Origin: an uncultured Clostridia bacterium | Lineage (GTDB): Bacteria > Bacillota > Clostridia > TANB77 > CAG-508 | Length of the DNA: 64,000 bases | Assembly (NCBI GenBank): GCA_947581825.1 | Contig: CANPVP010000002.1 | Coordinates: 104,747 to 168,746 of the forward strand | Direction of reading: 5' to 3' | Part shown: in pieces, positions 9,990 through 54,814 of the stretch | Position numbering within the stretch: position 1 is the first letter of the stretch | Layout of the letters: every line of letters starts with the position of its first letter | Notes under the pieces: model-generated | The model's input: the letters and a program-made list of their open reading frames with translations, nothing else | The model's database searches: none | Told to the model about the DNA's origin: nothing | Position numbers and translations under genes: made by a program

Positions 9990-10652
9990 ATGAAAACTAT
10001 ATTAGTTGTGGAAGATGATATGGATATTCACAATTTAATAAAAGAAGTGCTAGAACAAGAAAATTATAATGTTATAGATGCATATTCTGGAACAGAAGCA
10101 TTAATATTATTAAAAAATAAAAGAGTAGATTTGATATTATTAGATTTAATGCTTCCTGGATTAAATGGAGAAGAAATAGTAAAAGAAATAAAAAATATAC
10201 CAATTATAGTTATAAGTGCAAAAATATCTCAAGAAGACAAAATCAATGTATTATTAAATGGAGCAAATGATTATATTGTAAAACCCTTTGATAAAAATGA
10301 ATTATTAGCAAGAGTAAAAGTACAGTTAAGAATAAATGAGGGGAAAATAGATAATAAAGAAATCCAATTTAAAGATATGATTTTGAAAGAAGAGAATCAT
10401 GATATATATATTAAAGAGAAAAAAATACATCTAACTAAAACAGAGTATGCAATTTTAAAACAATTATTAATACATCAAAATCAAGTTATAACAAAAACTA
10501 AATTGTTAGAATTACTTAGTTATGACACTTTGGATTGTGATGAAAATTCTCTAAAAGTGCATATAAGTAATATAAGAAAAAAGATTAGAGAAATAACAGA
10601 AAAAGAATATATAGAGTCAGTATGGGGAATAGGCTTTAAGATTCATAAATAA
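9990..10652 (+). CDS. OmpR-family response regulator (REC + winged-helix)
   Basis: ILVVEDD...D52-type receiver and C-terminal trans_reg_C (VWGIGFKI). Sits upstream of the ABC ATPase, ABC-2 permease and histidine kinase of a Bce-like module. Confidence 0.85.
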   Translation: MKTILVVEDDMDIHNLIKEVLEQENYNVIDAYSGTEALILLKNKRVDLILLDLMLPGLNGEEIVKEIKNIPIIVISAKISQEDKINVLLNGANDYIVKPFDKNELLARVKVQLRINEGKIDNKEIQFKDMILKEENHDIYIKEKKIHLTKTEYAILKQLLIHQNQVITKTKLLELLSYDTLDCDENSLKVHISNIRKKIREITEKEYIESVWGIGFKIHK

Positions 10653-10685
10653 AATAGTAAAAATCTTTACTAAATTTTAACTATT

Positions 10686-10704
10686 TTCTTAACCGATTTC
10701 TTAA
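10686..10704 (+). promoter_or_regulatory. direct repeat TTCTTAA-N5-TTCTTAA (12-bp period) at the -35 region of the ABC operon promoter, a candidate response-regulator box
   Basis: Two exact TTTCTTAA octamers 12 bp apart, 40-55 nt upstream of the ABC ATPase start. OmpR-family regulators bind tandem direct repeats. Confidence 0.3.
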
Positions 10705-10741
10705 TTATTTAATTATAAAATAATATTGAAAGGAGGAGGTT

Positions 10742-11656
10742 ATGGAAAATATATTAGAAACTAAGCATATTGAGAAAAAATATAAGAAATTTAAAGCTTT
10801 AGATGGGATAAATATGCATGTTCCTAAAAAAGCAATATATGGGCTAGTTGGAAAAAATGGAGCGGGTAAAACGACTTTAATAAGAATTATTTGTGGTTTG
10901 CAAAAACCAACAAAGGGAACTTATACCATTTATAATACTGTTAATACAAGTAACCAAATAACAAAACAAAGAAAAAGAATAGGGGCAATAATAGAAGCTC
11001 CGTCAATTTGCTTAGATATGACAGCGGAAGATAATTTAAAAAAACAATGTAAAATTATAGGTATTCCTGATGAAGAAAATGTATATAAAATATTAAAGAC
11101 AGTTAATTTAGAAAATACTGGAAAGAAGAAAGCAAAGAACTTTTCGCTAGGAATGAAACAAAGACTAGGAATTGCTATAGCACTGGTAGGCAATCCAGAT
11201 TTTATAATATTAGATGAACCTATAAATGGTTTGGATCCAGCAGGAATAATAGAAGTAAGAGAATTAATTTTAAAATTAAATAAAGAAAATGGAATTACGT
11301 TTTTAATATCAAGTCATTATTTAGATGAATTATCTAAAATTGCTACTTGTTATGGCTTTATGAACAATGGAAAAATAGTAAAAGAAATTGATAAAGAAGA
11401 ATTAGAGAAAAGTCACAGAAAAAGAATAGAAATAAATGTTAATAATATAAAAGAATGCGTAAAATATTTAGAAGAAAATAAGATATCTTATCAAGTTATT
11501 TCAGATGAAGTAATAGATATATATGAAAAAGTAAATGTTTCAGAGATTGTAATAGCGCTTTCTAAAAGAGACTGTATTATTAATAGTTTTCAAGAAAAAT
11601 CTGAATCCCTAGAAAATTATTATTTAAATTTAATAGGAGGTGCAGATAATGTATAA
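10742..11656 (+). CDS. ABC transporter ATP-binding protein (BcrA/lantibiotic-immunity type)
   Basis: Walker A GKNGAGKTTL, signature FSLGMKQRLGIA, Walker B IILDEP. 304 aa with C-terminal extension. Confidence 0.85.
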   Translation: MENILETKHIEKKYKKFKALDGINMHVPKKAIYGLVGKNGAGKTTLIRIICGLQKPTKGTYTIYNTVNTSNQITKQRKRIGAIIEAPSICLDMTAEDNLKKQCKIIGIPDEENVYKILKTVNLENTGKKKAKNFSLGMKQRLGIAIALVGNPDFIILDEPINGLDPAGIIEVRELILKLNKENGITFLISSHYLDELSKIATCYGFMNNGKIVKEIDKEELEKSHRKRIEINVNNIKECVKYLEENKISYQVISDEVIDIYEKVNVSEIVIALSKRDCIINSFQEKSESLENYYLNLIGGADNV

Positions 11657-12513
11657 GTTATTAAAAGCAGGATTTTATAGATTAAGAAAAGAATTAGTTT
11701 TCAAACTGTTTATAGTTTCTTCGATTATAGTGGCTATATTTATTGCTAAAAAAGATTATAAAGCATGGGGACAAGTAGGAATAAATGAAGCAATAGTTGA
11801 GTTTATGATATATATAGGCTTTTTCATATCAATATTTGTGAGTATATTCGTAGGGAAAGAACATTCAGAAGGTATTATTAGAAATAAAATAATAGTACGG
11901 ACATAGTAGAACAGATATATATTTATCTAGAGTAATAATAAGTAGTATAGCATGCATGGCATGTGAGTTGATTTATGTAATTCTGGTAATATTAATGAGT
12001 TTTGTTATATTTGGAAATATACCACTTTCTGCAATATACTTTACTCCAAAAACTATATTATATATATTATTAATTATTATAGAATATTGTTCTATTTTTA
12101 ATTTTGTATCAATGATATGTTCAGAAATAACAGCTTCTATGATTATTAATATTTTATCTTTTTTTATAATATTTTCTATTGGAGCATATTTAGGAGGGAT
12201 TGCAAATAGTAGTAAATATATAAATGGAACATATACCGATGAAAATAATATTACTACTATTGTTAATCAAGAAATAAATCCCAATTATCCAGGAGATGAA
12301 AAAGTAAAAATGGCAAAAATAATTTGCCTATTTATTCCAGAAGAACAAGCAGGGAGCTTAATGGATGAAGCGAGTAGAGTTAAGTTGAATCAAATAGAAG
12401 ATTTAGAAATAAAAAATGAGTTTTTGAGATATACACCAATATGTGCGATAGTGCTAATTGGATTTGTAAATATTACAGGAGTATATGTATTTGGAAAAAA
12501 AGACCTAAAATAG
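11640..12513 (+). pseudogene. ABC-2 (lantibiotic-immunity MutE/EpiE-like) permease interrupted by a +1 frameshift at about 11896-11903 (ORFs 11640..11906 and 11956..12513)
   Basis: Frame A ends ...GIIRNKIIVRT*. Frame B is already open from 11896 as YGHSRTDIYLSRVIISSIACMACELIYV..., so a single extra base near gtacgga splits a contiguous permease of about 270 aa with 6 TM segments. Confidence 0.55.
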
Positions 12514-12523
12514 GAGGAAATTT

Positions 12524-13405
12524 GTGAACATTTACTTGGGAATAATATTTGTATTAATTATTATACTAACTATTATAAGTGCTAGGTTTTATTTAATAAA
12601 AAAATCAATAAAAGAAATAGAAGTATCTACAAGAGAAATATTAAAATCTGATACTAACAGTTTGATTACTATATCTACAGATAATAAAGAAGTAAAAGCA
12701 TTAGCAAAGGAGCTAAATATAGAGTTAAAAAATATAAGAGAGCAAAGACTTCAATATGAAAATGGAAATCAGGAATTAAAAAAAATAATAACTAACATTT
12801 CTCATGATATGAGAACCCCTTTAACTGCGATAAAAGGATATATAGATTTATTAAAAGAAGAAAATATAGAGGAAAAACAACAAGAATATTTGAGGATAAT
12901 AGAAAGAAAAACAGGAGATTTAGTGTTACTTACAGAGCAATTATTTGAGTTTTCAAAAATAATGGATACTGAAATAAAAATAGAAAAAGAAAATTGTTGT
13001 ATTAATGGAATGTTGGAAGATGCACTTACTAACTATTATACAATTTTCAAAGAGAAAAATATTATTCCAGATATAAATTTATGCGAAGAAAAAGTTTATA
13101 GAATGGTTGACAGAAATGCAATTAATAGGGTATTAGATAATATATTATCTAATATTAGCAAATATAGCAGTGGAGATTTAAAAGCGATTTTGGAAAAAAA
13201 TGGAAAGATAATCTTTTCCAATAAAGCAGAAGCTTTGGATGCAACAACAGTACAAAAAATATTTAATAGATATTTTACTGTAGAAAATGCAAAAAAATCT
13301 ACTGGAATAGGGTTAGCTATTGCTAAACAATTAGTAGAATTAAACGGGGGAAGTATAACAGCCCAATATGAAAACGGATATCTTATTATTGAGATAATAC
13401 TATGA
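12524..13405 (+). CDS. small intramembrane-sensing histidine kinase (BceS/SpaK-like)
   Basis: Short N-terminal TM, H-box ISHDMRTPLTAIKGYIDLL, G-box IGLAIAKQLVELNGGSI. 293 aa. Confidence 0.85.
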   Translation: MNIYLGIIFVLIIILTIISARFYLIKKSIKEIEVSTREILKSDTNSLITISTDNKEVKALAKELNIELKNIREQRLQYENGNQELKKIITNISHDMRTPLTAIKGYIDLLKEENIEEKQQEYLRIIERKTGDLVLLTEQLFEFSKIMDTEIKIEKENCCINGMLEDALTNYYTIFKEKNIIPDINLCEEKVYRMVDRNAINRVLDNILSNISKYSSGDLKAILEKNGKIIFSNKAEALDATTVQKIFNRYFTVENAKKSTGIGLAIAKQLVELNGGSITAQYENGYLIIEIIL

Positions 13406-31010: not shown

Positions 31011-31073
31011 ACTTTACAAAAAGTAAAAAATATGATATAAATAATAGGTTATAAATTGAAAGAGGTTGAAAAA

Positions 31074-32378
31074 ATGAATGTAGGATTTATATCATTAGGT
31101 TGTAGTAAAAATTTAGTAGATACTGAAATGACTATTGGGTTATTCAAAAAGAATAATTATAATGTAGTTAATAATCCAAATGAAGCGGATATAATTATTA
31201 TAAATACATGTGGTTTTATAGAGTCAGCAAAACAAGAAGCAATAGATACCATTTTAGAAATGGCAGAATACAAGAAAAAAAGATGCAAATATTTAATTGC
31301 TATGGGATGTTTAGTGCAAAGGTATAAAGAGGAATTACAAGACCTATTACCAGAAGTAGACTTATTTATAAAATATAAAGAATATGATACGATTTGGGAG
31401 CAAATAGAAGAGTTAATAGGAAGAAATAAAGAAAATGATACTAAATTGAAGTTTGAAGATAGAACAATTACTACAGGAAAGAATTTTGCATATTTAAGAA
31501 TTGCAGAGGGATGTAGTAACAGATGTACATATTGTGCAATTCCATATATAAGAGGAAATTTTGTTAGTAGAAAAATAGAAGATATATTAGAAGAAGCAAA
31601 AAAACTAGCTAAAAATGGATATAAAGAATTAATAGTAATAGCACAGGATACAAGTAAATATGGAATAGATTTATATGGAGAATCTAAATTAGCAGAATTG
31701 CTGGAAAAATTAGCCCAAATAAAAGAACTTAAATGGATTAGATTTTTATATACATATCCAGAATCTATTACAGATGAACTAATTAGAGTAGTTAAAGAAA
31801 ATGATAATGTATGTAAATACTTTGATATACCAATTCAACATATTTCAGATTCAGTTCTAAAAAGAATGAATAGAAAAAGTAAAGGACAAGATATAAAGAA
31901 TGTAATAGATAAGATTAGGAAAGAAATTCCAGAAGTGATAATAAGAACAACTGTAATGGTAGGTTTTCCAGGAGAAACGGAAGATGACTTTGAAAAGTTA
32001 TATAAATTTGTGGAAGAGACTAAATTTGATAGATTAGGTGCATTTGCATATTCAAAAGAGGATGGAACTCCAGCAGAAAAATTAAATAATCAAATACATC
32101 ATATGACTAAAAAGAAAAGATATAATAAAATAATGAAATTACAACAAGAAATTTCAGAAAAAAATACAGAAAAACAAATAGGAAAAGAACTAGAAGTGTT
32201 AATTGAAAATGAAAGTTTTGATGGAAAATTTTATATTGGAAGAAGTATGAATGAAGTTCCAGATATAGATGGAGTTATATATATAAAAAAGGACAGAGAA
32301 AATTGTTTAGATAAGTTTGCAAATGTGAGAATTATAGATAGTAAAGGTTATGATTTAATAGCAAAAATTAAAAAGTAA
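31074..32378 (+). CDS. rimO: ribosomal protein S12 methylthiotransferase RimO
   Basis: MTTase N-domain (VGFISLGCSKNLVDTE), radical-SAM CxxxCxxC (CSNRCTYC), C-terminal TRAM domain. 434 aa. ATG 31074 follows AGAGG. Confidence 0.85.
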   Translation: MNVGFISLGCSKNLVDTEMTIGLFKKNNYNVVNNPNEADIIIINTCGFIESAKQEAIDTILEMAEYKKKRCKYLIAMGCLVQRYKEELQDLLPEVDLFIKYKEYDTIWEQIEELIGRNKENDTKLKFEDRTITTGKNFAYLRIAEGCSNRCTYCAIPYIRGNFVSRKIEDILEEAKKLAKNGYKELIVIAQDTSKYGIDLYGESKLAELLEKLAQIKELKWIRFLYTYPESITDELIRVVKENDNVCKYFDIPIQHISDSVLKRMNRKSKGQDIKNVIDKIRKEIPEVIIRTTVMVGFPGETEDDFEKLYKFVEETKFDRLGAFAYSKEDGTPAEKLNNQIHHMTKKKRYNKIMKLQQEISEKNTEKQIGKELEVLIENESFDGKFYIGRSMNEVPDIDGVIYIKKDRENCLDKFANVRIIDSKGYDLIAKIKK

Positions 32379-32390
32379 AAAGTAAAAATA

Positions 32391-32432
32391 AAAGCAATAA
32401 GATATTAATTAATATTTTATTGCTTTCAATGT
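32391..32432 (+). terminator. hairpin aaagcaataa-N16-ttattgcttt after rimO
   Basis: Perfect 10-bp stem with a weak T-run. Confidence 0.4.
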
Positions 32433-32613
32433 TTTTGCAACAAAATAAAATAAAAACTTAAAATAAAAAGTACTTGTGTATTGTTTCACATCATTGACTA
32501 ACAAATAATATTAGTTCTTTTTATTTGTTATTATATTTACAATGAAATACATGTTGTGATATTATAAAAACAATAAGTAAAATACTACAAAAGTAAAAAA
32601 GGGGAAATTAAGA

Positions 32614-35241
32614 TTGAAAATAAATGGTAAAGAAAAAAATAGTAGAATAGAACAAATGGATAAATCCATAAAGGATAAGTCAAAAAAAGTAAAAAGAAAT
32701 GATTTTATGATATTTATAGTAATAATAATTATGGTAATTACCATTTATTATGCGTATCGTCTATTTTCCTCTCTTATTACAGATGAAATTAGTGCAAGAT
32801 CAATCAAAAATATGACAGAATTATCAAAACATGATGAAAAATCAATTGTATCTGGATTAGAGCATAGGTGGAAAAACTTAGATGGAATAGCAAACAGGAT
32901 AAGAAAAAATAAGAATAAAGATGTTCAAGAAATGCTAGAAGAATTGAATATTGAAGCAGAAATAGAAGAATGTAAAGAATTATTATTAGTAACCGATAAA
33001 GGAAAAACTTTTAGCAGTACATATACTATAAAAGACGATCAAGAATTATTAGAGTTATTAAAAAATTCAAAGGATAAATTTGCAAGAAGAAAAGATACTA
33101 GTGACAATATTGCTGTAGATGCACGTAGGGAAGTATTGCAAATTGGTATAAAGATTGATCCAATAAAAATAGGAAAAGACAATATTGTATATGCAATAGC
33201 AAATTACAATATTGGAGATTTAACAGACGAACTAAAAATTCAAAGTTATAATGGACAAGGATATAGTAGTGTTGTAGATATAGACGGCTTTTACATAATA
33301 TCTGTATATAAAACTAATCAGGTATCTGACAAGGATAATTTTTTTGAGGTAATAAGCAGAGAAAAAAGTGAAGAACCAGTTAATGTAGATGATGTAAAAA
33401 AGAAGATGGAGAATAGGGAAAGTTTCTCCTTAAAATATAAATTAGATGGACAAGATAGAATAATGGTTTGTACACCAATGACAGATGTAGACTGGTATTG
33501 TGTAATGACTCTACCGATTTCTATATATATAGGACAAAGTAGAGAAATGTTAACAATATTAACAATCTTAATTTTTGTAGTATTAATAACTATAGGAATA
33601 GTTTATATATTGGTTTATAAAAATAGTTCACAAAAAAATATAATGAAATTTGAAGCTAAACATAAAGGCGAATTAGAATCAGCATTAGCTATGGCAGAAC
33701 AGGCAAACCGAGCGAAAACAACATTCTTAAACAACATGTCACATGATATTCGTACACCGATGAATGCTATTATAGGTTTCACATCATTAGCCAAAATGCA
33801 TATAGATAACAAATCAAGTGTAGAGGGATATTTAGAGAAAATAACACAATCATCAAATCATTTACTATCATTAATAAATGACGTATTAGATATGAGTAGA
33901 ATTGAATCAGGTAAGGTAAGTATAAATGAAAAAGAAGAAAACCTTGCAGATATACTTCATAGTATTAGAAATATTATACAAGCAGATATAAATGCAAATC
34001 AGCTAGAATTTATAATTGATACAGTAGATGTAATAGATGAGAACATTTACTGTGATAAATTGAGATTAAATCAAATATTAATTAATCTTCTATCAAATTC
34101 AATTAAATTTACTGAACCAGGTGGACAAATAGCTGTGCGCATAACAGAAAAACCAGTAAAGAAAAAAGGCTATGGAACTTATGAATTTAGAATAAGGGAT
34201 ACAGGAATTGGAATTAGTAAAGAATTTATGAAAGAAATTTTTGAGCCATTTGCAAGAGAACGTACTTCAACAGTAAGTGGTATTCAAGGAACTGGCTTAG
34301 GAATGGCTATTACTAAAAACATTGTAGATATGATGGGAGGAACAATTGAAGTAGAAAGTGAAGTCGGAAAAGGAACTGAGTTTATTGTTACTCTACAATT
34401 TAAACTACAAGAAGAGCATAAAAAAATAGAAGAGATAGAAATTCTAAAAGGTGTGAATGCTTTAGTTATTGATGATGACATGAATTCTTGTCAAAGTATT
34501 GCACATATGTTAAGACAATTTGGACTAAAACCAGAATGGACAATGCATGGAAAAGAAGCAATAGCACGTGTAAAGGAAGCAAAACAAATTCAAGAACAAT
34601 ATCACATATATATAGTGGATTGGCTAATGCCTGATATGAATGGTATTGAAACTACAAGACAAATTCGAAAGGTTGTAGGAAAAGATGCAATAATAATTTT
34701 GCTTTCAGCATATGACTGGGGAGAAATTGAGAAAGAAGCAAGAGAAGCAGGAGTTACAGAATTTGTTAATAAACCATTATTCCCTTCTGACTTAAGGAGA
34801 ATACTATTAAAAGCTGTAGGAGCTGAGAAGCAAAAAAAGGAAGAAGAAAAAGTTGATTTTAGTGGAAAAAGGATTTTACTAGTAGAAGATAATATGATGA
34901 ATAGAGAAATTGCAACAGAATATTTACAAGATTTTGGCTTTAAAGTAGAAAATGCAGAAAATGGAAAAGAAGCTTGTGATATTCTAGAAAAGGCTGAACC
35001 AGGATATTTTGATTTAGTTTTAATGGATATTCAAATGCCAATTATGAATGGATATGAAGCAGCAAAAACTATTCGTAATTTTAAAAATAAGCAAATTGCT
35101 AATATTCCTATTTTAGCCATGACAGCAAATGCTTTTGAAGAAGACAAAAAAGCTGCTAAGGAAGCAGGTATGGATGGACATTTAGCAAAACCAATTGATA
35201 TTCCAAAATTAATACAAGCACTAAAAGATATTTTAAATTAA
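32614..35241 (+). CDS. hybrid sensor histidine kinase: TM-extracytoplasmic Cache-like sensor-TM-HisKA-HATPase-REC-REC
   Basis: H-box MSHDIRTPMNAIIGF, G-boxes, then two receiver domains (LVIDDDMNSCQ...D; KRILLVEDNMMNREI...DLVLMDIQMP). 875 aa. Confidence 0.85.
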   Translation: MKINGKEKNSRIEQMDKSIKDKSKKVKRNDFMIFIVIIIMVITIYYAYRLFSSLITDEISARSIKNMTELSKHDEKSIVSGLEHRWKNLDGIANRIRKNKNKDVQEMLEELNIEAEIEECKELLLVTDKGKTFSSTYTIKDDQELLELLKNSKDKFARRKDTSDNIAVDARREVLQIGIKIDPIKIGKDNIVYAIANYNIGDLTDELKIQSYNGQGYSSVVDIDGFYIISVYKTNQVSDKDNFFEVISREKSEEPVNVDDVKKKMENRESFSLKYKLDGQDRIMVCTPMTDVDWYCVMTLPISIYIGQSREMLTILTILIFVVLITIGIVYILVYKNSSQKNIMKFEAKHKGELESALAMAEQANRAKTTFLNNMSHDIRTPMNAIIGFTSLAKMHIDNKSSVEGYLEKITQSSNHLLSLINDVLDMSRIESGKVSINEKEENLADILHSIRNIIQADINANQLEFIIDTVDVIDENIYCDKLRLNQILINLLSNSIKFTEPGGQIAVRITEKPVKKKGYGTYEFRIRDTGIGISKEFMKEIFEPFARERTSTVSGIQGTGLGMAITKNIVDMMGGTIEVESEVGKGTEFIVTLQFKLQEEHKKIEEIEILKGVNALVIDDDMNSCQSIAHMLRQFGLKPEWTMHGKEAIARVKEAKQIQEQYHIYIVDWLMPDMNGIETTRQIRKVVGKDAIIILLSAYDWGEIEKEAREAGVTEFVNKPLFPSDLRRILLKAVGAEKQKKEEEKVDFSGKRILLVEDNMMNREIATEYLQDFGFKVENAENGKEACDILEKAEPGYFDLVLMDIQMPIMNGYEAAKTIRNFKNKQIANIPILAMTANAFEEDKKAAKEAGMDGHLAKPIDIPKLIQALKDILN

Positions 35242-35316
35242 AATTATATAACTATAAATATACTAATACATAATGTAAATTTTTAAGCAAGTTTATAAAT
35301 TTATGAGGAGGATAAT

Positions 35317-36675
35317 ATGAAGAAAAAAAAGAGTATTATTTTAATGGTAGCAGTATTATTAATAGTAATAGTAGGAATAGGAGTAAATTTTTTAGGAAAG
35401 AAAAATAATCAAAACAGCGAAGAGCAGAAAGAAGAAATCAAATTAACGATTAAAGTACCTGTATTACAAACATCATCTTATAAAGATAGTAATGTAAAAT
35501 CAGCATATGATTTGGTAAAAAAATTGGCAGATAATTTTGAAGAACAGTATAAAGACGCAAATGTTAAGGTAGATGTAATAGAATTTGAGAAAGATGAAGA
35601 AGATAATCAAATAATAGGATGTTTTGATACTAATGAAGCAGCAGATGTTTTATACGAAGAATATTTTAATATGTCAACTTATGTGCATACAGGAAAAGTT
35701 GTTCCTTTAGATGATATCATTACAGAAAATATAAGAAATGATATTGACGATAATTATTGGGATGTTAGTAAATTAAACGGAAAAACATATATGATGCCAT
35801 ACTTAGGTATGCAAAATACATTATGTTATAATAAAGATCTATTTAAAGAAGTGGGATTAGAAAAATATGTAACAGATGAAGATGTTGTTCAAAATTGGTC
35901 ACTAGAAGATTGGGATATAATCTTATCAACTTTGCAAAAAAAATTACCAGAAAATGTATATCCAATGTTAATGTATGCTAAAAACGAAATGGGAGACACA
36001 CATGTTATTACTCTTCTTCGTAGTAGAGGAAGCACTTTCTTTGATGAGAATGGAAGAGTAAAATTAACAACACCAGAAGGAATAGCAGCAGTAAAATGGC
36101 TTATGGATTGTAATGAAAAAGGCTATTTTCCTGCAAATGCAACAAATATAGAAATAAATGACTGTTATGATTTGTTTATGAATGGTCAGTTGGCAATATA
36201 TATAAATAATGCAGTATTAAATGATACACTTAAAACAAGTGGTGTAAATTATGGAAATGCAAATTTTCCATCTGTAGACGGAAAAGGGTTTAATACTACT
36301 TTCCTTACAGGATTTGAAGTATTTGATAATGGAAACGAAGAAAAATTAAAAGTAGCAAAAGATTTTATAAAATATATTTATGAAACAGATGAATTATTAG
36401 ACTACTCTGCTGGTGCAATACCATGTAGCAATGCGGTGGCTACTAGATTTGCTAAAGAATTAGAGGAAGAACAAAAATACATTGATAATAGTGAGCAAGG
36501 ATGGAACTTTACAGGAAATACACCTGAGTGGAGAAAAGTAAGAGCAGTATTCTATAAAGATATAAAACAATTATTAGATGGAGAAAAAACACCAGAAGAA
36601 ATTGCTAAACTAATAGAAGATGATTGTAACAAAGCTATAGAAGAAGGATATGCAAGTAGTAAACTACATGAATAA
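35317..36675 (+). CDS. extracellular solute-binding protein (family-1 sugar-binding-like), with no cognate permease genes nearby
   Basis: Uncleaved signal anchor (no lipobox Cys), 452 aa. GAGGAGG ribosome binding site 75 nt after the kinase stop with no terminator, so co-transcribed. Confidence 0.75.
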   Translation: MKKKKSIILMVAVLLIVIVGIGVNFLGKKNNQNSEEQKEEIKLTIKVPVLQTSSYKDSNVKSAYDLVKKLADNFEEQYKDANVKVDVIEFEKDEEDNQIIGCFDTNEAADVLYEEYFNMSTYVHTGKVVPLDDIITENIRNDIDDNYWDVSKLNGKTYMMPYLGMQNTLCYNKDLFKEVGLEKYVTDEDVVQNWSLEDWDIILSTLQKKLPENVYPMLMYAKNEMGDTHVITLLRSRGSTFFDENGRVKLTTPEGIAAVKWLMDCNEKGYFPANATNIEINDCYDLFMNGQLAIYINNAVLNDTLKTSGVNYGNANFPSVDGKGFNTTFLTGFEVFDNGNEEKLKVAKDFIKYIYETDELLDYSAGAIPCSNAVATRFAKELEEEQKYIDNSEQGWNFTGNTPEWRKVRAVFYKDIKQLLDGEKTPEEIAKLIEDDCNKAIEEGYASSKLHE

Positions 36676-36732
36676 TATATCAATTGGTTTTGAATCATTG
36701 ACTAACATACAAAAAATTTGAAATAAAAGTAC

Positions 36733-36761
36733 TTGACAGTTTACAGTAATCAATATAAAAT
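36733..36761 (+). promoter_or_regulatory. sigma-A promoter TTGACA-N17-TAAAAT for rny
   Basis: Consensus -35 and near-consensus -10, about 85 nt upstream of the rny ATG. Confidence 0.5.
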
Positions 36762-36847: not shown

Positions 36848-38389
36848 ATGGACACAGTTGTTATTATCGCCACATTTCTAATCTCAGCAGTGATTTTTAT
36901 CCCAATTGGTGTATTTCTTAGAAAAAAAATCGCTGAATCAAAAATAGAAAGTGCAGAAAATGAAGCCAAAAGACTAATTGAGCTTGCTAAAAAAGATGCT
37001 GAAAATAAAAAGAAAGAAGAGATTTTTAAAGCAAAAGAAGAAATTATGCAATCTAGAAATGAACTAGATCAAGAGATTAGAGAAAGAAGAGGCGAACTAA
37101 AAAAACAAGAAGACAGATTAATTCAAAAAGAAGAAAATTTAGATAAACGTTCAGAAAACTTTTTACAAAAAGAAAATGAAGTTGTTAAAAAACAAGAAGA
37201 ATTAGACCAAAAAGAAATTGAAATTGAAAAAATAAAAAATCAACAATTTGAAGAATTACAAAGAATATCTGGATTGACTCAAGAAGAAGCAAAAAAATAC
37301 TTATTAGGTGAAATTGAAAAAGAAATTGTAGCAGAAAAAGCAGCTTTAATAAGAGAATTAGAAAATAAGCATAAAGAAGAAGCAAACAAAAATGCAAAAG
37401 AGCTGTTAACATATGCAATTCAAAAATGTGCAGCAGATCATACTTCTGAAACAACGGTATCGATAGTTTCTCTTCCTAATGATGATATGAAAGGAAGAAT
37501 TATAGGTAGAGAAGGTAGAAATATTAAGGCTTTAGAAACTTTAACAGGTATAGATTTAATTATAGATGACACTCCAGAAGCTGTAATCTTATCTGGTTTT
37601 GATCCTCTAAGAAGAGAAGTAGCTAAAATAGCTTTAGAAAAATTAATTGAAGATGGAAGAATTCATCCAGCTAAAATTGAAGAAATGGTTGAAAAGGCAA
37701 AAGAAGAGGTAGAAGAAATTATCAAATCAGAAGGAGAAAGAGCAGTTTTAGAAACAGGTGTTATAGGATTAAATCCAGATTTAGTTAAGCTTATAGGAAA
37801 ACTAAAATATAGAACAAGTTATGGTCAAAATGTATTAAATCATTCTATAGAAGTTTCTAATTTAGCTAGAATAATGGCTGATGAACTAGGATTAGATTCC
37901 AAAAGAGCAAGAAGAGCAGGTCTATTACATGATATTGGAAAGGCTTTAGATCATGATATGGAAGGAACACATGTTGAAATTGGTGTTGACATATTAAAAA
38001 AATATAAAGAAAATCCTTTAGTGATTAATGCAGTTGAGGCACATCATGGAGATGTAGAACCTCAAACTTTAGAAGCAGTTTTAATTCAAGCCGCAGATGC
38101 AATATCAGCATCAAGACCAGGTGCAAGACGCGAAACATTAGAAACTTATATTAAAAGACTAGAACAATTAGAAGAAATAGCCGATTCTTTTGATGGAGTG
38201 GACAAATCATATGCAATTCAAGCAGGTAGGGAAGTTCGTATAATTGTAAAACCAGAAAAAGTGTCTGATGCACAAATGACTATAATGGCTAGAGATATTG
38301 CAAAAAGAATCGAAGCTGAGATGGAATATCCAGGTCAAATAAAAGTTAATATTATTAGAGAGTCTAGAACCGTAGAATATGCAAAATAA
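36848..38389 (+). CDS. rny: ribonuclease Y
   Basis: N-terminal TM, coiled coil, KH domain ([11 protein letters not shown]), HD domain (HSIEVS...LLHDIGK). Confidence 0.9.
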
Positions 38390-38663: not shown

Positions 38664-39314
38664 ATGGTAAAAATAACCTTAATAATTATAATCTGGGCTT
38701 TAGCGGGTATACTTATTGTTCAAAATGTTTCATATACAAAAATTATATCTGGAATTAAAAATTCTCAGGGAAGTAATTTAATAGAAAATATTAATAGCAA
38801 AGATAAAAATGAAAAAACAAAAAATAATGAAAATACATTTATCCAAAACAATATTAATACTAAGAAAAATAATAATACTAAAAAGAACAATAATACAAAT
38901 AAACCAAAAGAAACAAAAAGATTTGTAGCAAAAGTTATTGGTACATTATCTATTCCAGATATTGAAATAAATGAAAAAAATATATATGAAGGAACAGAAT
39001 TAGATATTTTAAATATAGGAATAGGACATTTTACTAATACGAGTATTTGCAATGGAAATGTGGGCTTAGCTAGCCATAATTCTGGTGGAAAGGGTGATGA
39101 GTTTAAAAATTTAAAAAATATAAAAGTTGGAAGTGAAATATATTATAAAACAAAATACGATTCTAAAACTTATTCGGTCGAAATAGTTAAAGAGATTTCA
39201 GATGAGGATTGGTCATATTTGTCAGAAACTAAGGATAATAGGATTACTTTACTAACATGCATATCTGGAAAACCCAATAGCAGATTATGTGTTCAAGGAA
39301 AAGAAAAAACATAA
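38664..39314 (+). CDS. sortase (class B-like transpeptidase)
   Basis: N-terminal TM, His in GLASH, catalytic TLLTC and downstream Arg (SRL). 216 aa. Weak ribosome binding site. Confidence 0.7.
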   Translation: MVKITLIIIIWALAGILIVQNVSYTKIISGIKNSQGSNLIENINSKDKNEKTKNNENTFIQNNINTKKNNNTKKNNNTNKPKETKRFVAKVIGTLSIPDIEINEKNIYEGTELDILNIGIGHFTNTSICNGNVGLASHNSGGKGDEFKNLKNIKVGSEIYYKTKYDSKTYSVEIVKEISDEDWSYLSETKDNRITLLTCISGKPNSRLCVQGKEKT

Positions 39315-39388
39315 AGAACGAATGAAAAGGTATACTAACAATAATTGTTAGTAAGAAACAGTATAAAATACAAATAGGAGATGTAAAA

Positions 39389-41536
39389 ATGAAAGTTAGA
39401 TTTAAAAAAATACTAATAATGTTAATGATATTAGTTAATATCATTCAAATTAATATATGTTCTTTTGCAGAACTAGAAAAAAATCAGAAAATTAAATTAA
39501 AAAGTAATGGTATGCTAGATTGTTTATTGCAATTTTATAAAGAATCAATATCAGACTGGAGTTATAAAGTAGGGTACTATATATACTACTCAGATGAAGA
39601 TAATGGAAAGAAAGTTCCAGCAATTTGCGTAGAACCATCTAAGGATGGAGTGGGTGAACTAGGAAGCTATGATACAACTATAGATGTGTGCAATGATAAT
39701 GGTATATATACAATATTATATATTTTCAATAATAAGAAATATACTTCATGGAACTTGAAAAATGAAAAAGATTACTACTTAGCAGTTCAAACAGCAATGC
39801 ATTGCTATTCTGAGAAAATAAGCCCCAAAAAGAAATATCGAGTTGGAGATAGGGTTTTGGAAGGATATACACCAAAGACTTTAGAAGAAATAAAATCAAG
39901 AGGAAAAGCTGTTTTAAATACAGCAGAGAGTTTATATAATTCAGCAATAAAAAAAGAATATAAACAAGATTATTTATCCATTGATTTAAAAGAAAAAAGT
40001 GATTGGATAGAAGAAAAAATAAATGGAAAAGCATATTATTCTAAAAAATATGAAGTAGAATCAAACGTAAAATTAGATTATTATAAAATAGATGTTTCAG
40101 AATTATGGAATAATGCTAAAATATTTGATATGAAAAATAATAATATCAAAGAAAAATCAAAAGTTACAAATAATGAATTTAAAGTTTCTATTGAAAAGAG
40201 TGAGATTTCAACTCCTAAAACAATAAAAGGTAGAATAAAAATAGAATCTGCTACAGCAAAATTACCAACGGCAGTGTATGCTAATAGTAACAAAGGAAAC
40301 ACGCAAAATTATGTAATATTTACAGATAAAACTCAACAGGTAACAAAAGTAAAGACAACTGGTTTTACAACAGTAAACAATAAAATTAAAATACATAAAT
40401 TAGATTCTAATACAAAAGTTCCATTAGAAGGTGTAGACTTTAAAATATATAGTAAACAAAAAGATAGTAATGGTAAATATATTTTAAATGAAGACACATA
40501 TATATTAACAACTGACAAGAGTAATTTAAAAGGAGAAATCTCTCTCAATATAGAAAAAGCTGGAGATTATGTAGCTATAGAAAATACAGCTCCAACAGGA
40601 TATGTTTTATCAGATAAAACATATGAGTTTTCAGTTGATGTAGGCATTGCACCAAAAGATATAAAAATAAATATAGAAAATGATTTAATAAAAGGAAAAA
40701 TTGAAATACTAAAAAAATCAAAAGGATATAATCAGTTTTTAAATATAGAAGATGGAAAACCTTTAGAAGGTGCAAAGTATAAAATAGAGGATGCTAATGG
40801 AAATCTAATAGGAACATATACTACAAATTCAGAAGGCTTAATACTATCAAAAGATTTACCATATGGAGAATACAAAATATATGAGATAGAAAGTCCAAAA
40901 TTCTATAATCTTAATACTGAGCCTCAAACAATATTTATAAATGAAAATCAGAAAAAATACACAGTTATCTTTGAAAACGAATCATCTGAAGTTGAACTAA
41001 AAATTGAAAAATCAGGAACAAAAGAGACCGAATCAGGAAAAAAGGTAGAGTATGAATTTGATAATTTAGAAAACAAATCAAATGTTGCAGTTAATAATTT
41101 TACATGGAAAGATGTACTTCCAACTGATGCTGTTAGAATTAATGAGATTTCAACAGGAACATGGAAAGATGAAGTCGAATATTCAATTTGGTATAAAACA
41201 AATTTAAATAATAAATATGTCCTTTATAAAGATAAATTAAATTCAAAGAATAATTATAATTTTAATATGAATGAAATAAAATTATCAAAGAATGAATATA
41301 TTACAGAATATGAATTTAGATTTGGAACAGTTAATCCAGGATTCAAAGAAGAAATTAATCCTAAAATTTATTGTCAGGTATTAAAAGGTTTGAAAAGTGG
41401 GTATGAATTTACAAACAATACATATTTAACTGCAACATATTTTGACGAAAAAATTGAAGAACATGATAAATGGAAAACGTTTGTATATAATAAAGAAACT
41501 CCACAAAAGAATAAATTGCCTAAAACAGGAATATAA
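39389..41536 (+). CDS. secreted pilin/adhesin-like protein with two SpaA/Cna-B-type isopeptide domains, ending ...NKLPKTGI* (LPxTG without membrane anchor)
   Basis: Signal peptide. Prealbumin-fold repeats (VDFKIY...IENTAPTGYVLSDKTYEF; GAKYKIED...YGEYKIYEIESPKFYN). LPKTG is the penultimate motif, followed by one residue and a stop. No hydrophobic tail in any frame downstream. Confidence 0.7.
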   Translation: MKVRFKKILIMLMILVNIIQINICSFAELEKNQKIKLKSNGMLDCLLQFYKESISDWSYKVGYYIYYSDEDNGKKVPAICVEPSKDGVGELGSYDTTIDVCNDNGIYTILYIFNNKKYTSWNLKNEKDYYLAVQTAMHCYSEKISPKKKYRVGDRVLEGYTPKTLEEIKSRGKAVLNTAESLYNSAIKKEYKQDYLSIDLKEKSDWIEEKINGKAYYSKKYEVESNVKLDYYKIDVSELWNNAKIFDMKNNNIKEKSKVTNNEFKVSIEKSEISTPKTIKGRIKIESATAKLPTAVYANSNKGNTQNYVIFTDKTQQVTKVKTTGFTTVNNKIKIHKLDSNTKVPLEGVDFKIYSKQKDSNGKYILNEDTYILTTDKSNLKGEISLNIEKAGDYVAIENTAPTGYVLSDKTYEFSVDVGIAPKDIKINIENDLIKGKIEILKKSKGYNQFLNIEDGKPLEGAKYKIEDANGNLIGTYTTNSEGLILSKDLPYGEYKIYEIESPKFYNLNTEPQTIFINENQKKYTVIFENESSEVELKIEKSGTKETESGKKVEYEFDNLENKSNVAVNNFTWKDVLPTDAVRINEISTGTWKDEVEYSIWYKTNLNNKYVLYKDKLNSKNNYNFNMNEIKLSKNEYITEYEFRFGTVNPGFKEEINPKIYCQVLKGLKSGYEFTNNTYLTATYFDEKIEEHDKWKTFVYNKETPQKNKLPKTGI

Positions 41537-52109: not shown

Positions 52110-52201
52110 AACAGTTTGGAGAAGATAGAAAAAATAAAAGAAAAATGAAGTCTAACGACGCAAGATACTGATTATTTTTCAAAAAAATGAAAGGAGAAAA
52201 A

Positions 52202-54814
52202 ATGGCAGAATATTCACCAATGATGCAACAATACTTGGAAACAAAAAGTAAATATGATGACTGTATCCTTTTTTACAGATTAGGAGATTTCTATGAAATG
52301 TTTTTTGATGATGCTATTACAGCATCAAAAGAATTAGAAATCACTTTAACAGGAAGAGATTGTGGACAAGCAGAAAGAGCTCCAATGGCAGGAATTCCTT
52401 TTCATGCAGCAGATATGTATATATCAAGATTAATAACAAAAGGATATAAAGTAGCTATTTGTGAGCAACTAGAAGATCCAAAAACAACAAAAGGAATGGT
52501 AAAAAGAGATGTTATAAGAGTCGTAACTCCAGGAACTCTAATAGAAACTAATATGCTAGATGAAAAAAAGAATAATTATATAATGTCAATATATAAAAAT
52601 GGCTTGTTCTTTGGATTAGCAGTATGTGATGTTTCGACCGGTGATTTTTATGCAACAGAAATAAAAGAAACAAATAATTTTTCAAGATTACTAGATGAAA
52701 TAGCAAGATATTCTCCAGCAGAAATCATTGTTAATAATATGATGTTTTCATCTAATGAAGAAATAGAAAAAATAAAAGAAAGATTTCAAAGTTATATATC
52801 TAAAATAAGTGATGAAAAGTTTATAGATGAGAGTTCACAAATAGAAAAAAATTATAAAATAATAGATACTAATAATGAAGAAATAAAAAATTTAGAAAAT
52901 AGAGGACTAGCATTAAATGCCATAAGTGAATTAGTATATTATTTTAATGAAACTCAAAAAACAAAATTGGAACATGTAAATAAAATCCAAATATATAATA
53001 CAACAAAATACATGTGCTTAGATATTAATGCAAGGAGAAATCTTGAGATTACAGAAAGAATGAGAGACAAATCTAAAAGAGGAACACTACTTTGGGTATT
53101 AGATAAAACATGTACTTCTATGGGGGGACGTAATCTAAGAAGATGGCTAAATAATCCATTAATAGATATAAAAGAAATAAATGATAGATTAGACGCAGTT
53201 GAAGAGCTAAAAGAAAATATGATGTTAAAAGGAGAAATAATAGAAAGCTTAAAGAAAGTTTATGATATAGAAAGATTAATAGGAAAAATATCATATGGAA
53301 ATGCTAATGCAAGAGATATGATATCATTAAAAAATTCAATACAACAATTGCCAGATATAAAAAGGCTTTTATCAAACACAAAATGTAACCTATTAAAAGA
53401 ATTATATAATGGTTTAGATGAACTTATGGACATATATGAACTTATAAATCAAGCAATAGTAGAAGAACCTCCTATAAGTGTAAAAGAAGGAGGCTTAATA
53501 AAATTAGGATATAATGAAGAAATAGATAGACTAAAATCAGCAACAACAGACGGAAAAAAATGGCTTGTTGAGCTAGAGTTAAAAGAAAAAGAAGCTACTG
53601 GAATTAAAAATTTAAAAGTTGGATTTAATAAAGTATTTGGATATTTTATCGAGGTTACTAAATCAAATTTAAATCAAGTGCCAGATAGATATATAAGAAA
53701 ACAAACATTAGCAAATGGGGAAAGATATATAACGGAAGAGCTTAAGAAAATAGAAGAGACTATATTAGGGGCAGAGGATAAGCTTATAAATTTAGAATAT
53801 AATGTTTTCCAAGATATTAGAAGCAAATTAGAACAACAAATAGAAAGAATTCAATCAACTGCTGATGTTATTTCGAAATTAGATGTACTAACTTCTTTTG
53901 CAACTGTAGCAGAAGATATGGACTATGTCAAACCAATAGTAGATGAAGAAGGAATCATAGAAATTAAAGATGGAAGGCATCCTGTTATAGAAAAAATGCT
54001 CCCTAGTGGAAGTTTTGTTCAAAACGATACTTACCTAGATAAAGATAATGATAGATTATCAATAATCACAGGACCTAATATGGCAGGAAAATCTACATAT
54101 ATGAGGCAAGTCGCCTTAATTACACTTATGGCACAAGTTGGAAGTTTTGTACCAGCTTCTTATGCAAAGATAGGAGTAGTTGATAAAATATTTACAAGAG
54201 TAGGGGCATCAGACGATTTAAGTATGGGACAAAGTACTTTCATGGTAGAAATGATGGAGGTAGCAACTATTTTAAAGGAAGCAACAGCAAATAGTTTAGT
54301 AATATTAGATGAAATAGGAAGAGGAACTTCTACATATGATGGTTTATCAATAGCATGGGCTGTAGCAAGTCACATTGCTGATAAGGAAAAATGTGGAGCA
54401 AAGACATTGTTTGCAACACATTATCATGAACTTACAAAATTAGAAGAAGAGGTTGAAGGTGTAAAAAATTATTCTATAGCAGTAAAAGAAAAAGGAGAAG
54501 ATATAATATTTCTTAGAAAAATCATTGAGGGTGGAACAGATGAAAGCTACGGAATACATGTAGCAAAGCTTGCTGGAGTTCCACAGAATGTTGTGAAAAA
54601 TGCAAATGAAATTTTAAAAAGTTTGGAAAGAAAAAGTGCTTTAGGAAACAAAGCAATAGAAAAAGAAAACAAAAAAGTAGCAGCAGGGCAATTGGATATG
54701 TATAACTATAAATTAGCTGAAATAGCACATCAAATAGATAAAATAAATGTTAATGAATTAACACCAATAGACGCTTTAAATATACTAGTTAAATTAAAGG
54801 ATAGTGCATCTTAA
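52202..54814 (+). CDS. mutS: DNA mismatch repair protein MutS
   Basis: Mismatch-binding N-terminus (MAEYSPMMQQYLETK...GDFYEMFFDDA), Walker A GPNMAGKST. The ATG at 52202 follows AAAGGAG. The track start 52187 overlaps the ribosome binding site. Confidence 0.95.
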   Translation: MAEYSPMMQQYLETKSKYDDCILFYRLGDFYEMFFDDAITASKELEITLTGRDCGQAERAPMAGIPFHAADMYISRLITKGYKVAICEQLEDPKTTKGMVKRDVIRVVTPGTLIETNMLDEKKNNYIMSIYKNGLFFGLAVCDVSTGDFYATEIKETNNFSRLLDEIARYSPAEIIVNNMMFSSNEEIEKIKERFQSYISKISDEKFIDESSQIEKNYKIIDTNNEEIKNLENRGLALNAISELVYYFNETQKTKLEHVNKIQIYNTTKYMCLDINARRNLEITERMRDKSKRGTLLWVLDKTCTSMGGRNLRRWLNNPLIDIKEINDRLDAVEELKENMMLKGEIIESLKKVYDIERLIGKISYGNANARDMISLKNSIQQLPDIKRLLSNTKCNLLKELYNGLDELMDIYELINQAIVEEPPISVKEGGLIKLGYNEEIDRLKSATTDGKKWLVELELKEKEATGIKNLKVGFNKVFGYFIEVTKSNLNQVPDRYIRKQTLANGERYITEELKKIEETILGAEDKLINLEYNVFQDIRSKLEQQIERIQSTADVISKLDVLTSFATVAEDMDYVKPIVDEEGIIEIKDGRHPVIEKMLPSGSFVQNDTYLDKDNDRLSIITGPNMAGKSTYMRQVALITLMAQVGSFVPASYAKIGVVDKIFTRVGASDDLSMGQSTFMVEMMEVATILKEATANSLVILDEIGRGTSTYDGLSIAWAVASHIADKEKCGAKTLFATHYHELTKLEEEVEGVKNYSIAVKEKGEDIIFLRKIIEGGTDESYGIHVAKLAGVPQNVVKNANEILKSLERKSALGNKAIEKENKKVAAGQLDMYNYKLAEIAHQIDKINVNELTPIDALNILVKLKDSAS

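Follow-up and report, generated by a model that had tools for sequence, protein, structure and literature searches.

Several described systems use a binding protein to control a membrane kinase, namely CBP/ChiS of Vibrio cholerae, TorT/TorS, HptA/HptS, ChvE/VirA, and GltB/GtrS; among these kinases are several hybrids and several with dCache-like outside domains (PMC8050422). The pair analyzed here, a hybrid histidine kinase and a solute-binding protein encoded in a 64-kb stretch of DNA (the window), shares its four-part logic with LuxP/LuxQ/LuxU/LuxO of AI-2 quorum sensing in Vibrio. As in LuxP/LuxQ, a dedicated, transporter-less binding protein is encoded beside a hybrid kinase with a tandem PAS/Cache-type outside domain, while the separate Hpt and response regulator that recall LuxU/LuxO are seen here in the operons of relatives. 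NagB1/NagS of Paenibacillus sp. FPU-7 is parallel in architecture to the kinase/binding-protein pair. In RpfC/RpfG of Xanthomonas, a hybrid kinase passes phosphate via an Hpt step to a REC-HD-GYP regulator, which degrades c-di-GMP. The same regulator type as RpfG is encoded in operons of the pair's relatives. The source genome of the window is that of a rabbit-gut Clostridia bacterium.

Hybrid kinase and binding protein

All features of the locus described below lie on the plus strand. The kinase gene (32614-35241) starts with TTG behind AGGGG and encodes 875 aa; an identical product is already present in public gene calls. Its layout agrees with that proposed in a first-pass annotation made from the sequence: TM1 (31-51) and TM2 (312-335) enclose an outside domain of ~260 aa and are followed by Pfam matches to HisKA (367-433), HATPase_c (481-596), and two Response_reg stretches. 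The HisKA and HATPase_c region (33712-34401) contains the phospho-acceptor His377 (33742-33744). Receiver 1 (34456-34794, Asp669 at 34618-34620) is an extra domain found in about one third of family members, and receiver 2 (34873-35223, Asp805 at 35026-35028) is the counterpart of the single receiver in one-receiver forms. The residues expected of a hybrid kinase with phosphorylatable receivers in a phosphorelay are in place, with the H-box (His377) invariant across 25 orthologues and DD, D, S/T, and K invariant in both receivers of 25 two-receiver kinases. Both receivers appear intact and functional-looking. Neither Pfam nor NCBIfam gives a family-level name to the sensor or to the whole kinase; LuxQ, TorS, BarA, and other models were rejected, matching the kinase core only and below cut-offs, and the kinase falls outside the LuxQ family proper (NF041947; LuxQ-periplasm domain; LuxP as Peripla_BP_4). 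Another ORF of 875 aa (52187-54814) in the window is MutS and was therefore rejected as a kinase paralogue.

The extracytoplasmic sensor (32773-33549, residues ~54-312) had been called Cache type, which the predicted fold supports and the sequence models do not. No Pfam model, dCache_1 and Cache included, exceeds the gathering score on the sensor, the best Cache match being Cache_3-Cache_2 (E = 0.054, 13.2 bits vs. a cut-off of 27.7), and a PDB profile search yields marginal dCache matches only (E = 0.011-0.4). A word-indexed search for sensor homologues returned 3 proteins, an exhaustive representative search 451 clusters. The AlphaFold model built with a 21-sequence alignment (a single-sequence run gave a pLDDT of only 43.5) adopts a double-Cache fold, in which a long N-terminal helix and two stacked PAS-like α/β modules are placed between the two TM helices. 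The predicted fold supports a dCache assignment, which the sequence models do not provide. The best structural matches of the model are the chemoreceptor dCache domains of PctA, Tlp3, McpH, and Mlp24.

After a 75-nt spacer (35242-35316) with the ribosome binding site GAGGAGG (35305-35311), the second gene (35317-36675) begins with ATG and encodes a family-1 solute-binding protein of 452 aa (Pfam SBP_bac_1, PF01547; 79.4 bits vs. a cut-off of 26, E = 6e-22). The protein has an N-terminal signal anchor, and the lipobox survey found no lipobox Cys, in line with the family and anchor claimed before. RNA folding predicts no hairpin in the spacer and none after the binding-protein gene, which fits the claimed co-transcription of the two genes, with a strong ribosome binding site and no terminator between them. 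Relatives in the PDB are sugar and chitooligosaccharide binding proteins. The first-pass annotation had also stated that no ABC permease or ATPase genes are nearby, and for sugar ABC permeases this extends to the entire 64-kb window: its multi-TM ORFs comprise no BPD_transp_1 permease, and no sugar ABC permease/ATPase operon lies beside the pair.

Conserved pairing and putative relay partners in gut Firmicutes

From 170 relatives found, 80 loci of gut Firmicutes were fetched and examined with neighborhoods of +/-10 kb. The family occurs in Lachnospiraceae, Oscillospiraceae, Clostridium scindens, Enterocloster, and rabbit-gut Clostridia, and cultured hosts of the gene signature include C. scindens, Anaerovorax odorimutans, and Enterocloster citroniae. 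Across distant Firmicutes, the homologous kinase adjoins a binding-protein homologue in ~77 of 77 informative loci (70 immediately adjacent, 3 with a split kinase, and 4 more by tblastn). Gaps between the two genes are short or overlapping (median 13 nt), about five loci have them in inverted order, and some relatives have frameshifted kinases (L015, L024). As the two genes are always neighbors in ~77 other genomes, the pair is a real, so far unstudied case of the known class of binding-protein-driven signaling; a search for literature specific to this family in Clostridia found nothing. Across the 80 neighborhoods, 37 membrane ORFs of 200-380 aa were candidates for permeases, and only 3 of them matched BPD_transp_1. 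The divergence of the binding protein correlates with that of the sensor at r = 0.92 vs. 0.74 for the kinase core (partial r given the core 0.82, reverse partial 0.05), in a mirror-tree comparison that is confounded by shared ancestry and differing rates of change. Together, the pairing in every informative locus (~77 of 80), the mere 3 permease matches, and the sensor-specific co-divergence support, as far as sequence goes, the earlier proposal of a co-sensor rather than a transport component.

The annotation had found neither an Hpt gene nor a matching regulator adjacent to the kinase. Indeed, the whole 64-kb window holds no Hpt (family HMM on all six-frame ORFs of at least 50 aa; Pfam on small ORFs) and no HD-GYP regulator, and the window kinase is thus not encoded together with Hpt and REC-HD-GYP partners there. 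The sole other regulator in the 64 kb is of OmpR type (9990-10652) and was rejected as a kinase partner because it belongs to a Bce-like ABC module. The suggested search for cognate partners was productive in relatives, where the same operon comprises Hpt, REC-HD-GYP regulator, kinase, and binding protein at 12-14 loci. In 12 relatives from the rabbit gut, Hpt and regulator immediately precede the kinase; in a few others they lie beside the pair. The relatives' Hpt comprises ~114 aa with an AHTLKG motif (Pfam Hpt, E = 1.5e-8), and the regulator combines REC and HD_5 in ~360 aa with HHERYDGxGYP (E = 1.6e-28). Within 10 kb, Hpt is found in only 18 and REC-HD-GYP in only 14 of the 80 loci. Other neighbors at related loci include GGDEF and GntR-type genes and more, and lineages may not all share one output. 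In other taxa, too, the majority of the family is unlinked to Hpt or regulator, yet conserved. For the window species, Hpt and regulator are presumably encoded elsewhere in the genome.

The relatives' operons with Hpt and REC-HD-GYP point to a likely relay from the ligand-loaded binding protein via the dCache kinase and Hpt to a c-di-GMP phosphodiesterase. We regard it as probable that the locus is a self-contained, inserted sensory cassette serving this relay. The cassette would extend from 32477 to ~36679, with the terminator of rimO before it and the promoter of rny after it, and would carry a promoter of its own from which both genes are transcribed together. The membrane-tethered, transporter-less binding protein would capture a ligand from outside the cell (probably a sugar or an oligosaccharide) and in its loaded (or empty) state dock on the dCache domain and switch the kinase. 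Starting at His377, the phosphoryl group would then be passed to one or both receiver aspartates (Asp669, Asp805) and onward via a stand-alone Hpt protein to the REC-HD-GYP response regulator; with the relay ending there, the output would be c-di-GMP hydrolysis rather than transcription. We infer the docking of binding protein and sensor, the ligand class, the direction of regulation, and the phosphotransfer route.

It is unlikely that the binding protein is instead an ordinary or dual-use ABC-import receptor with an unlinked permease and ATPase, whose uptake the kinase monitors or regulates (cf. CBP/ChiS, GltB/GtrS). Such a role would suit a bona fide SBP_bac_1 protein whose nearest solved relatives serve transporters, dual-use binding proteins are documented (PMC8050422), and at one locus (L056) a sugar ABC operon lies ~200 nt from a second kinase-binding-protein pair. 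However, matching permeases are absent from the window and from nearly all 80 neighborhoods, whereas the kinase is always adjacent, and binding-protein divergence tracks the sensor and not the rest of the kinase.

A further alternative, in which a small ligand is sensed by the dCache domain itself, as in most dCache receptors, and the binding protein is a co-expressed accessory, e.g., for surface nutrient scavenging, draws on the structural matches, as PctA, Tlp3, McpH, and Mlp24 all bind their ligands directly. This leaves the universal pairing, the short or overlapping gaps in very divergent genomes, and the sensor-specific co-divergence unexplained. Moreover, some dCache kinases (NagS, HptS, ChiS, VirA) are known to depend on a binding protein, and we consider direct sensing quite improbable.

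The locus between rimO and rny

The pair is flanked upstream by rimO (31056-32378; TIGR01125, 503.9 bits vs. a cut-off of 357, NCBIfam), which lies outside the cassette, and downstream by rny, encoding RNase Y (36848-38389; TIGR03319, 756 bits, NCBIfam). An intrinsic terminator hairpin with U-run follows rimO (32382-32438, inverted repeat I1; dG -21.4 kcal/mol, z -7.3, with 0 of 200 shuffles folding as well). In two sister lineages rimO is directly followed by rny, as the annotation had proposed to check, with synteny otherwise kept around the empty sites (L092, L093, L094, and L096). Owing to these empty sites, the pair is, on the evidence of genome comparison, identified as a 4.2-kb insertion into the rny promoter region. 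Homology with the sister species' empty site ends after 32476. Empty sites and alignments place the cassette (~4.2 kb) at 32477-36679, its right end falling between 36679 and 36711. A predicted promoter-like site for the kinase operon (32536-32565) combines TTTACA, an 18-nt spacing, and TG-n-TATTAT (10/12 consensus, extended -10), while the rny promoter-like site (36733-36761; TTGACA, 17 nt, TAAAAT; 11/12 consensus) is kept in sister species (alignments A5, A7, and A10).

The flanks form an imperfect direct duplication, 25-55 nt in length, of the rimO-rny spacer, which ends inside the rny -35 box. The left copy (32426-32476) has its core, AAAAACTTAAAATAAAAAGTACTTG, at 32452-32476, as seen in alignments A5 and A10 and in a local alignment of flank against flank; the right copy (36680-36735) holds the second copy of a 14-mer (36694-36707) and ATAAAAGTACTTG (36723-36735). 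The 14-mer, ATCATTGACTAACA, is exact at 32490-32503 as well, these being its only two copies in the window (0.06 expected), and it forms the core of an imperfect ~30-nt direct repeat near both cassette ends. By contrast, the 13-mer ATAAAAGTACTTG is exact at the right flank only; its upstream copy (32463-32476) carries one extra A, and the exact shared word is therefore the 11-mer AAAAGTACTTG. The earlier claim of short blocks recurring on both flanks thus stands for the 14-mer and needs correction for the 13-mer. A 14-mer common to two such spacers has p ~0.005, whereas the 11-mer alone is not significant. The order of the blocks is swapped between the flanks, a point absent from the first-pass annotation, and for this reason 14-mer and 13-mer were rejected as simple target-site duplications. 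What is duplicated collinearly is the A-rich spacer with GTACTTG at its end; the 14-mer repeat is separate from it.

The proposal of an inserted cassette within duplicated promoter-like sequence is thereby upheld by the empty sister sites and by the imperfect spacer duplication reaching into the rny -35 box. Two marks of a mobile element are present, namely presence/absence polymorphism (the empty sites) and target duplication (25-55 nt). The cassette contains two genes only, with no transposase, integrase, or recombinase and no inverted terminal repeats; serine recombinases adjoin the operon in some relatives only. When a donor of the 137-nt cassette leader was sought, and likewise other loci carrying the 14-mer, all matches came from the same species.

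The reverse polarity, with the pair ancestral at rimO-rny and deleted in the sister lineages via the flanking direct repeats, is quite improbable, although the exact empty-site sequence would result if the two AAATAAAA(A)GTACTTG copies recombined. The pair is missing from both of two separate outgroup lineages, whose RNase Y is 95-96% and 92% identical, and the database holds no binding protein of 76% to 96% identity; the outgroup lineages therefore seem to be without the gene altogether. Further, every other relative has the pair in other genomic contexts, and a derived G is common to both repeat copies where the outgroups have A.

Between two strains, the kinase shows a dN/dS of 0.044, the binding protein 0.129, and rny 0.029, while dS is ~0.1 and equal for all three. 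The pair is under purifying selection and, with dS equal to that of rny, has consequently been kept since before the strain split. An orphaned remnant, separated from its Hpt and regulator genes by relocation and now a dead end or phosphate sink, is very unlikely, since selection on both genes is strong, the kinase is full length in 14 of 14 variants, and most members in other taxa are conserved though unlinked to Hpt and regulator, even if both partners precede the kinase in many relatives and are missing from the window, and frameshifted kinases occur elsewhere in the family.

Significance and comparison with known systems

The sensory cassette described here offers sequence-resolved junctions together with presence/absence, and so a view of how a sensory module relocates without a recognizable mobile-element gene. 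Tentatively, and with considerable doubt, the pair could represent the conserved core of a widespread, unstudied gut-Firmicutes pathway leading from an extracellular glycan via transporter-independent sugar-type binding protein, dCache hybrid kinase, and Hpt plus HD-GYP to the c-di-GMP pool, its sensor half having moved, in the window species, as a promoter-bearing cassette into the promoter region of the essential rny gene. If true, lifestyle switching would thereby be tied to glycans from diet or host. On this reading, as no terminator separates the sensor operon from rny, rny may also be read through from it. Signals are unknown for most sensor kinases of gut anaerobes, and here the ligand specificity should reside in a binding protein that is soluble and easy to purify. 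Many gut Firmicutes display the clear gene signature of a binding protein and a dCache hybrid kinase with no permease, and the c-di-GMP output predicted from the relatives' operons is little explored in these organisms.

With the LuxPQ and NagB1-NagS class the pair has in common adjacent, co-oriented genes and an extracytoplasmic sensor that is dCache-like in its predicted fold. NagS, however, works with a classical response regulator encoded next to it and is not described as hybrid; no sequence homology between its sensor and the window sensor was detected in the PDB profile search, and an Hpt or HD-GYP branch is not reported for NagB1/NagS. CBP/ChiS, TorT/TorS, HptA/HptS, and ChvE/VirA differ by using other binding-protein families, whereas GltB is an SBP_bac_1 protein but also serves a transporter; these five systems are mostly proteobacterial and have transcriptional outputs. 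RpfC, in contrast to the window pair, is a multi-pass membrane sensor with a fused Hpt and no binding protein. Current concepts stand, and the principle of LuxPQ and NagB1-NagS is extended to a new, large family.

Gene pair between rimO and rny

The window belongs to a spore-forming Firmicute genome of 28% G+C, with SpoIVA and Spo-type neighbours present, and the gene order across the locus is hrcA-grpE-dnaK-dnaJ-?-AIM24-rimO-(kinase-binding protein)-rny-sortase-SpaA pilin-glgP. The kinase ORF (32614–35241) starts with TTG downstream of AGGGG and encodes 875 aa, identical to the product in public gene calls. An outside segment of ~260 aa separates TM1 (residues 31–51) from TM2 (residues 312–335), and Pfam assigns HisKA to residues 367–433, HATPase_c to residues 481–596, and two further domains to Response_reg. 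The binding-protein ORF (35317–36675), with an ATG start and GAGGAGG upstream, encodes a 452-aa SBP_bac_1 protein (79 bits); among proteins of solved structure, those that bind sugars and chitooligosaccharides are closest to it. ORFs and Pfam domains thus bear out the two-gene unit described in the first-pass annotation. A strong terminator lies at the rimO end (dG −21.4 kcal/mol, z −7.3). Since the 75-nt spacer between kinase and binding protein and the sequence 3′ of the binding-protein gene are both free of predicted hairpins, the pair is plausibly co-transcribed, with the transcript running on towards rny. Directly 3′ of rny lies a sortase plus LPXTG-type SpaA pilin gene (38664–41536), which is kept in sister species.

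The sensor domain had been called Cache-type, an assignment that holds by fold and not by sequence. Against Pfam, no model is significant (top match Cache_3-Cache_2, E = 0.054). An exhaustive search (E up to 1e-3) yields 451 representative clusters sharing the sensor, which is N-terminal in almost all of them, in proteins of 700–880 aa. The AlphaFold2 model of the sensor, built with 20 sequences of these clusters (pLDDT 83, pTM 0.72), displays two alpha/beta modules preceded by a long helix. Its best 50 Foldseek matches in the PDB are without exception double-Cache ligand-binding domains (E ~1e-10), among them Tlp3, McpH, Mlp24, and PctA/B/C. Six sensor residues (E69, H73, D74, G216, G225, and W294) are invariant across the family.

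Neither a family HMM run on every ORF of 50 aa or more nor Pfam on the small ORFs detects an Hpt in the 64 kb, and no partner regulator for the kinase is found in this stretch, confirming that neither is adjacent. The sole other regulator in the window, of OmpR type, was rejected as kinase partner: it belongs to a Bce-like peptide-sensing/detoxification module (9990–13405) that comprises this regulator, an ABC ATPase, an ABC-2 membrane protein, and a small histidine kinase, and is unrelated to the pair. A BPD_transp_1 permease is likewise not found in the 64-kb window.

Conservation of the pair across genomes

Homologues of the binding protein number in the hundreds, at 44–76% identity. A scan with one genome per species gave 170 relatives, for which 80 loci were fetched. 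These include rabbit-gut "Lapin" Clostridia MAGs (among them L033, of the same species at 97% identity), Lachnospiraceae, Oscillospiraceae, Acutalibacteraceae, Anaerovorax odorimutans, Enterocloster citroniae, Lachnotalea, and Bianquea. Three of the carriers, A. odorimutans, E. citroniae, and C. scindens, are cultivable. Wherever the contig is long enough, the binding-protein gene has as its direct neighbour a hybrid kinase whose sensor is homologous. The kinase precedes the binding protein in 67 loci, the order is inverted in 3, and the kinase is split in 3; tblastn recovers 4 more pairs missed by ORF clustering, and 3 of the 80 contigs are cut off. The intergenic gap has a median of 13 nt, with overlaps in several loci. 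Among all membrane ORFs of 200–380 aa in the 80 neighbourhoods, only 3 match BPD_transp_1; the absence of a transporter is therefore a family trait. Taken together, this constant adjacency and the scarcity of permeases support the proposal that the binding protein may act as a co-sensor for the kinase.

Measured pairwise, binding-protein divergence follows sensor divergence (r = 0.92) more closely than kinase-core divergence (r = 0.74; partial r for binding protein and sensor given the core 0.82, reverse partial 0.05), which fits a co-evolution of sensor and binding protein, the two outside parts, with correlations inflated by shared ancestry. Most binding proteins of the family are lipobox lipoproteins; in the rabbit-gut clade including the window, the binding protein carries an uncleaved-looking signal anchor with no Cys.

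In the rabbit-gut relatives L015 (=L010; 8990–9080) and L024 (8915–9010), a 1-nt insertion breaks the kinase orthologue into pieces of 566 aa and ~314–323 aa; it falls at a different site in each, either shortly ahead of the G2 box or within it. The database entries P0121 and P0123 are likewise 566 aa long. The splits reflect either recurrent kinase decay or assembly error. In a Lachnospiraceae MAG (L056, 1–13500), two divergent pairs stand back to back, one followed by an Hpt and a REC-HD-GYP regulator, the other adjoined by an ordinary sugar ABC operon made up of a binding-protein gene and two membrane ORFs of permease size. The Firmicute-type pair also occurs in MAGs labelled as archaea, titled Methanocorpusculum sp. 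(L058, L078, the former with mtrCDE genes on the pair's own contig), or as Bacteroidota, titled Prevotella, Bacteroides, and Alistipes (L036/L038/L048/L081/L082), which could represent misbinning, mislabelling, or horizontal transfer.

Insertion between rimO and rny

The first-pass annotation suspected an inserted cassette, and comparison with sister lineages now resolves its junctions at sequence level. In four loci of the same synteny (L092–L094 and L096), rny follows rimO directly with a spacer of ~210–220 nt; their RNase Y is 95–96% (L092–L094) and 92% (L096) identical to that of the window. More distant relatives have rny in other contexts, and all other carriers have the pair at other genomic sites. 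Binding proteins of between 76% and 96% identity are absent from the database; the sister lineages therefore seem to lack the gene altogether.

On the left side, alignment with the empty site ends with TACTTG at 32476, beyond which the sequences diverge. At the right, homology to the empty site resumes at ~36680, 4 nt past the stop codon, and continues through the rny promoter (36733–36761; TTGACA, 17 nt, TAAAAT). The segments 32426–32476 and 36680–36735 are imperfect direct copies of one spacer, with a core of 25 nt (23/25 identical in strain L033) and a common G where 4/4 outgroups have A. Of the short repeat blocks previously reported on both flanks, the 14-mer indeed has two exact copies in the window, while the second block contains a 1-nt indel and the block order is swapped. 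The 14-mer forms the core of a second, imperfect ~30-nt repeat, one copy of which lies immediately inside the left junction and the other in the right spacer copy. The two strains differ in how this repeat has diverged. The cassette has a predicted promoter-like site of its own (32536–32565) and no recombinase gene. Its leader (32455–32535) could form an AT-rich hairpin (dG −13.5 kcal/mol, z −2.0) pairing the left spacer copy with sequence 3′ of the 14-mer.

Comparison of the two strains gives equal dS for kinase (0.097), binding protein (0.111), and rny (0.115), with dN/dS of 0.044 for the kinase and 0.129 for the binding protein; on these substitution rates, the insert is of long standing in the species and subject to purifying selection. 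Across the fetched loci, three ORFs located 3′ of the pair are large serine recombinases by their Resolvase and Recombinase matches. The ~530-aa ORFs directly 3′ of the binding-protein gene (L014 11673–13268, L020 11558–13147, and similar) are the likely carriers of these matches, a hint that mobile DNA can border the module.

Putative relay partners and known systems

Clustering of all neighbouring ORFs across the fetched loci identifies two proteins as the most recurrent neighbours beyond the kinase and binding-protein genes themselves: a ~114-aa Hpt with an AHTLKG motif (Pfam Hpt E = 1.5e-8; 18 loci) and a ~360-aa REC + HD_5 protein with the HD-GYP signature HHERYDGxGYP (E = 1.6e-28; 14 loci). 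Tallies of two genes on each side of the pair agree with this result, listing Response_reg 15, HD_5 13, Hpt 12, and GntR 5 times upstream, and Hpt 3, serine recombinase 3, and GGDEF 2 times downstream. In 12 close relatives, Hpt, regulator, kinase, and binding protein form one operon in this order, with gaps of 6–50 nt. Kinases with one receiver (~46) span 700–775 aa and those with two (~24) 860–885 aa; the latter keep all catalytic residues in both receivers, and His377 is invariant.

In the most economical reading, the pair is part of a LuxPQUO-like relay ending in a c-di-GMP phosphodiesterase, in which binding, ligand, and phosphotransfer are presumed. For the window genome, we infer that Hpt and regulator are encoded beyond the 64 kb. 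Comparative evidence supports the earlier interpretation, which is extended by the putative Hpt and HD-GYP partners and by the sequence-resolved insertion.

In C. scindens, Anaerovorax, Enterocloster citroniae, and a Clostridium MAG (L007/L008 4316–5698; L009 4260–5705; L043, L067), a 460–480-aa protein with two GntR-type HTH regions adjoins the kinase on the same strand or divergently, possibly as a lineage-specific partner or target.

Binding proteins control membrane kinases in LuxP/LuxQ, TorT/TorS, CBP/ChiS, ChvE/VirA, HptA/HptS, and GltB/GtrS (PMC8050422). A Firmicute example is the family-1 protein NagB1, whose gene lies beside a two-component system (PMC8233162) and which, according to the title of Itoh et al, 2024 (cited in PMC12791066), interacts with the outside domain of NagS. 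The architecture of the family described here corresponds to LuxPQUO part for part. Sensor and binding protein, however, belong to families unrelated to those of LuxPQUO, the second receiver is optional, and the presumed output is an HD-GYP domain. Our literature searches found no description of this kinase-binding-protein family; given its LuxPQUO-matching architecture, it would therefore be an addition to the established binding-protein-controlled kinases.
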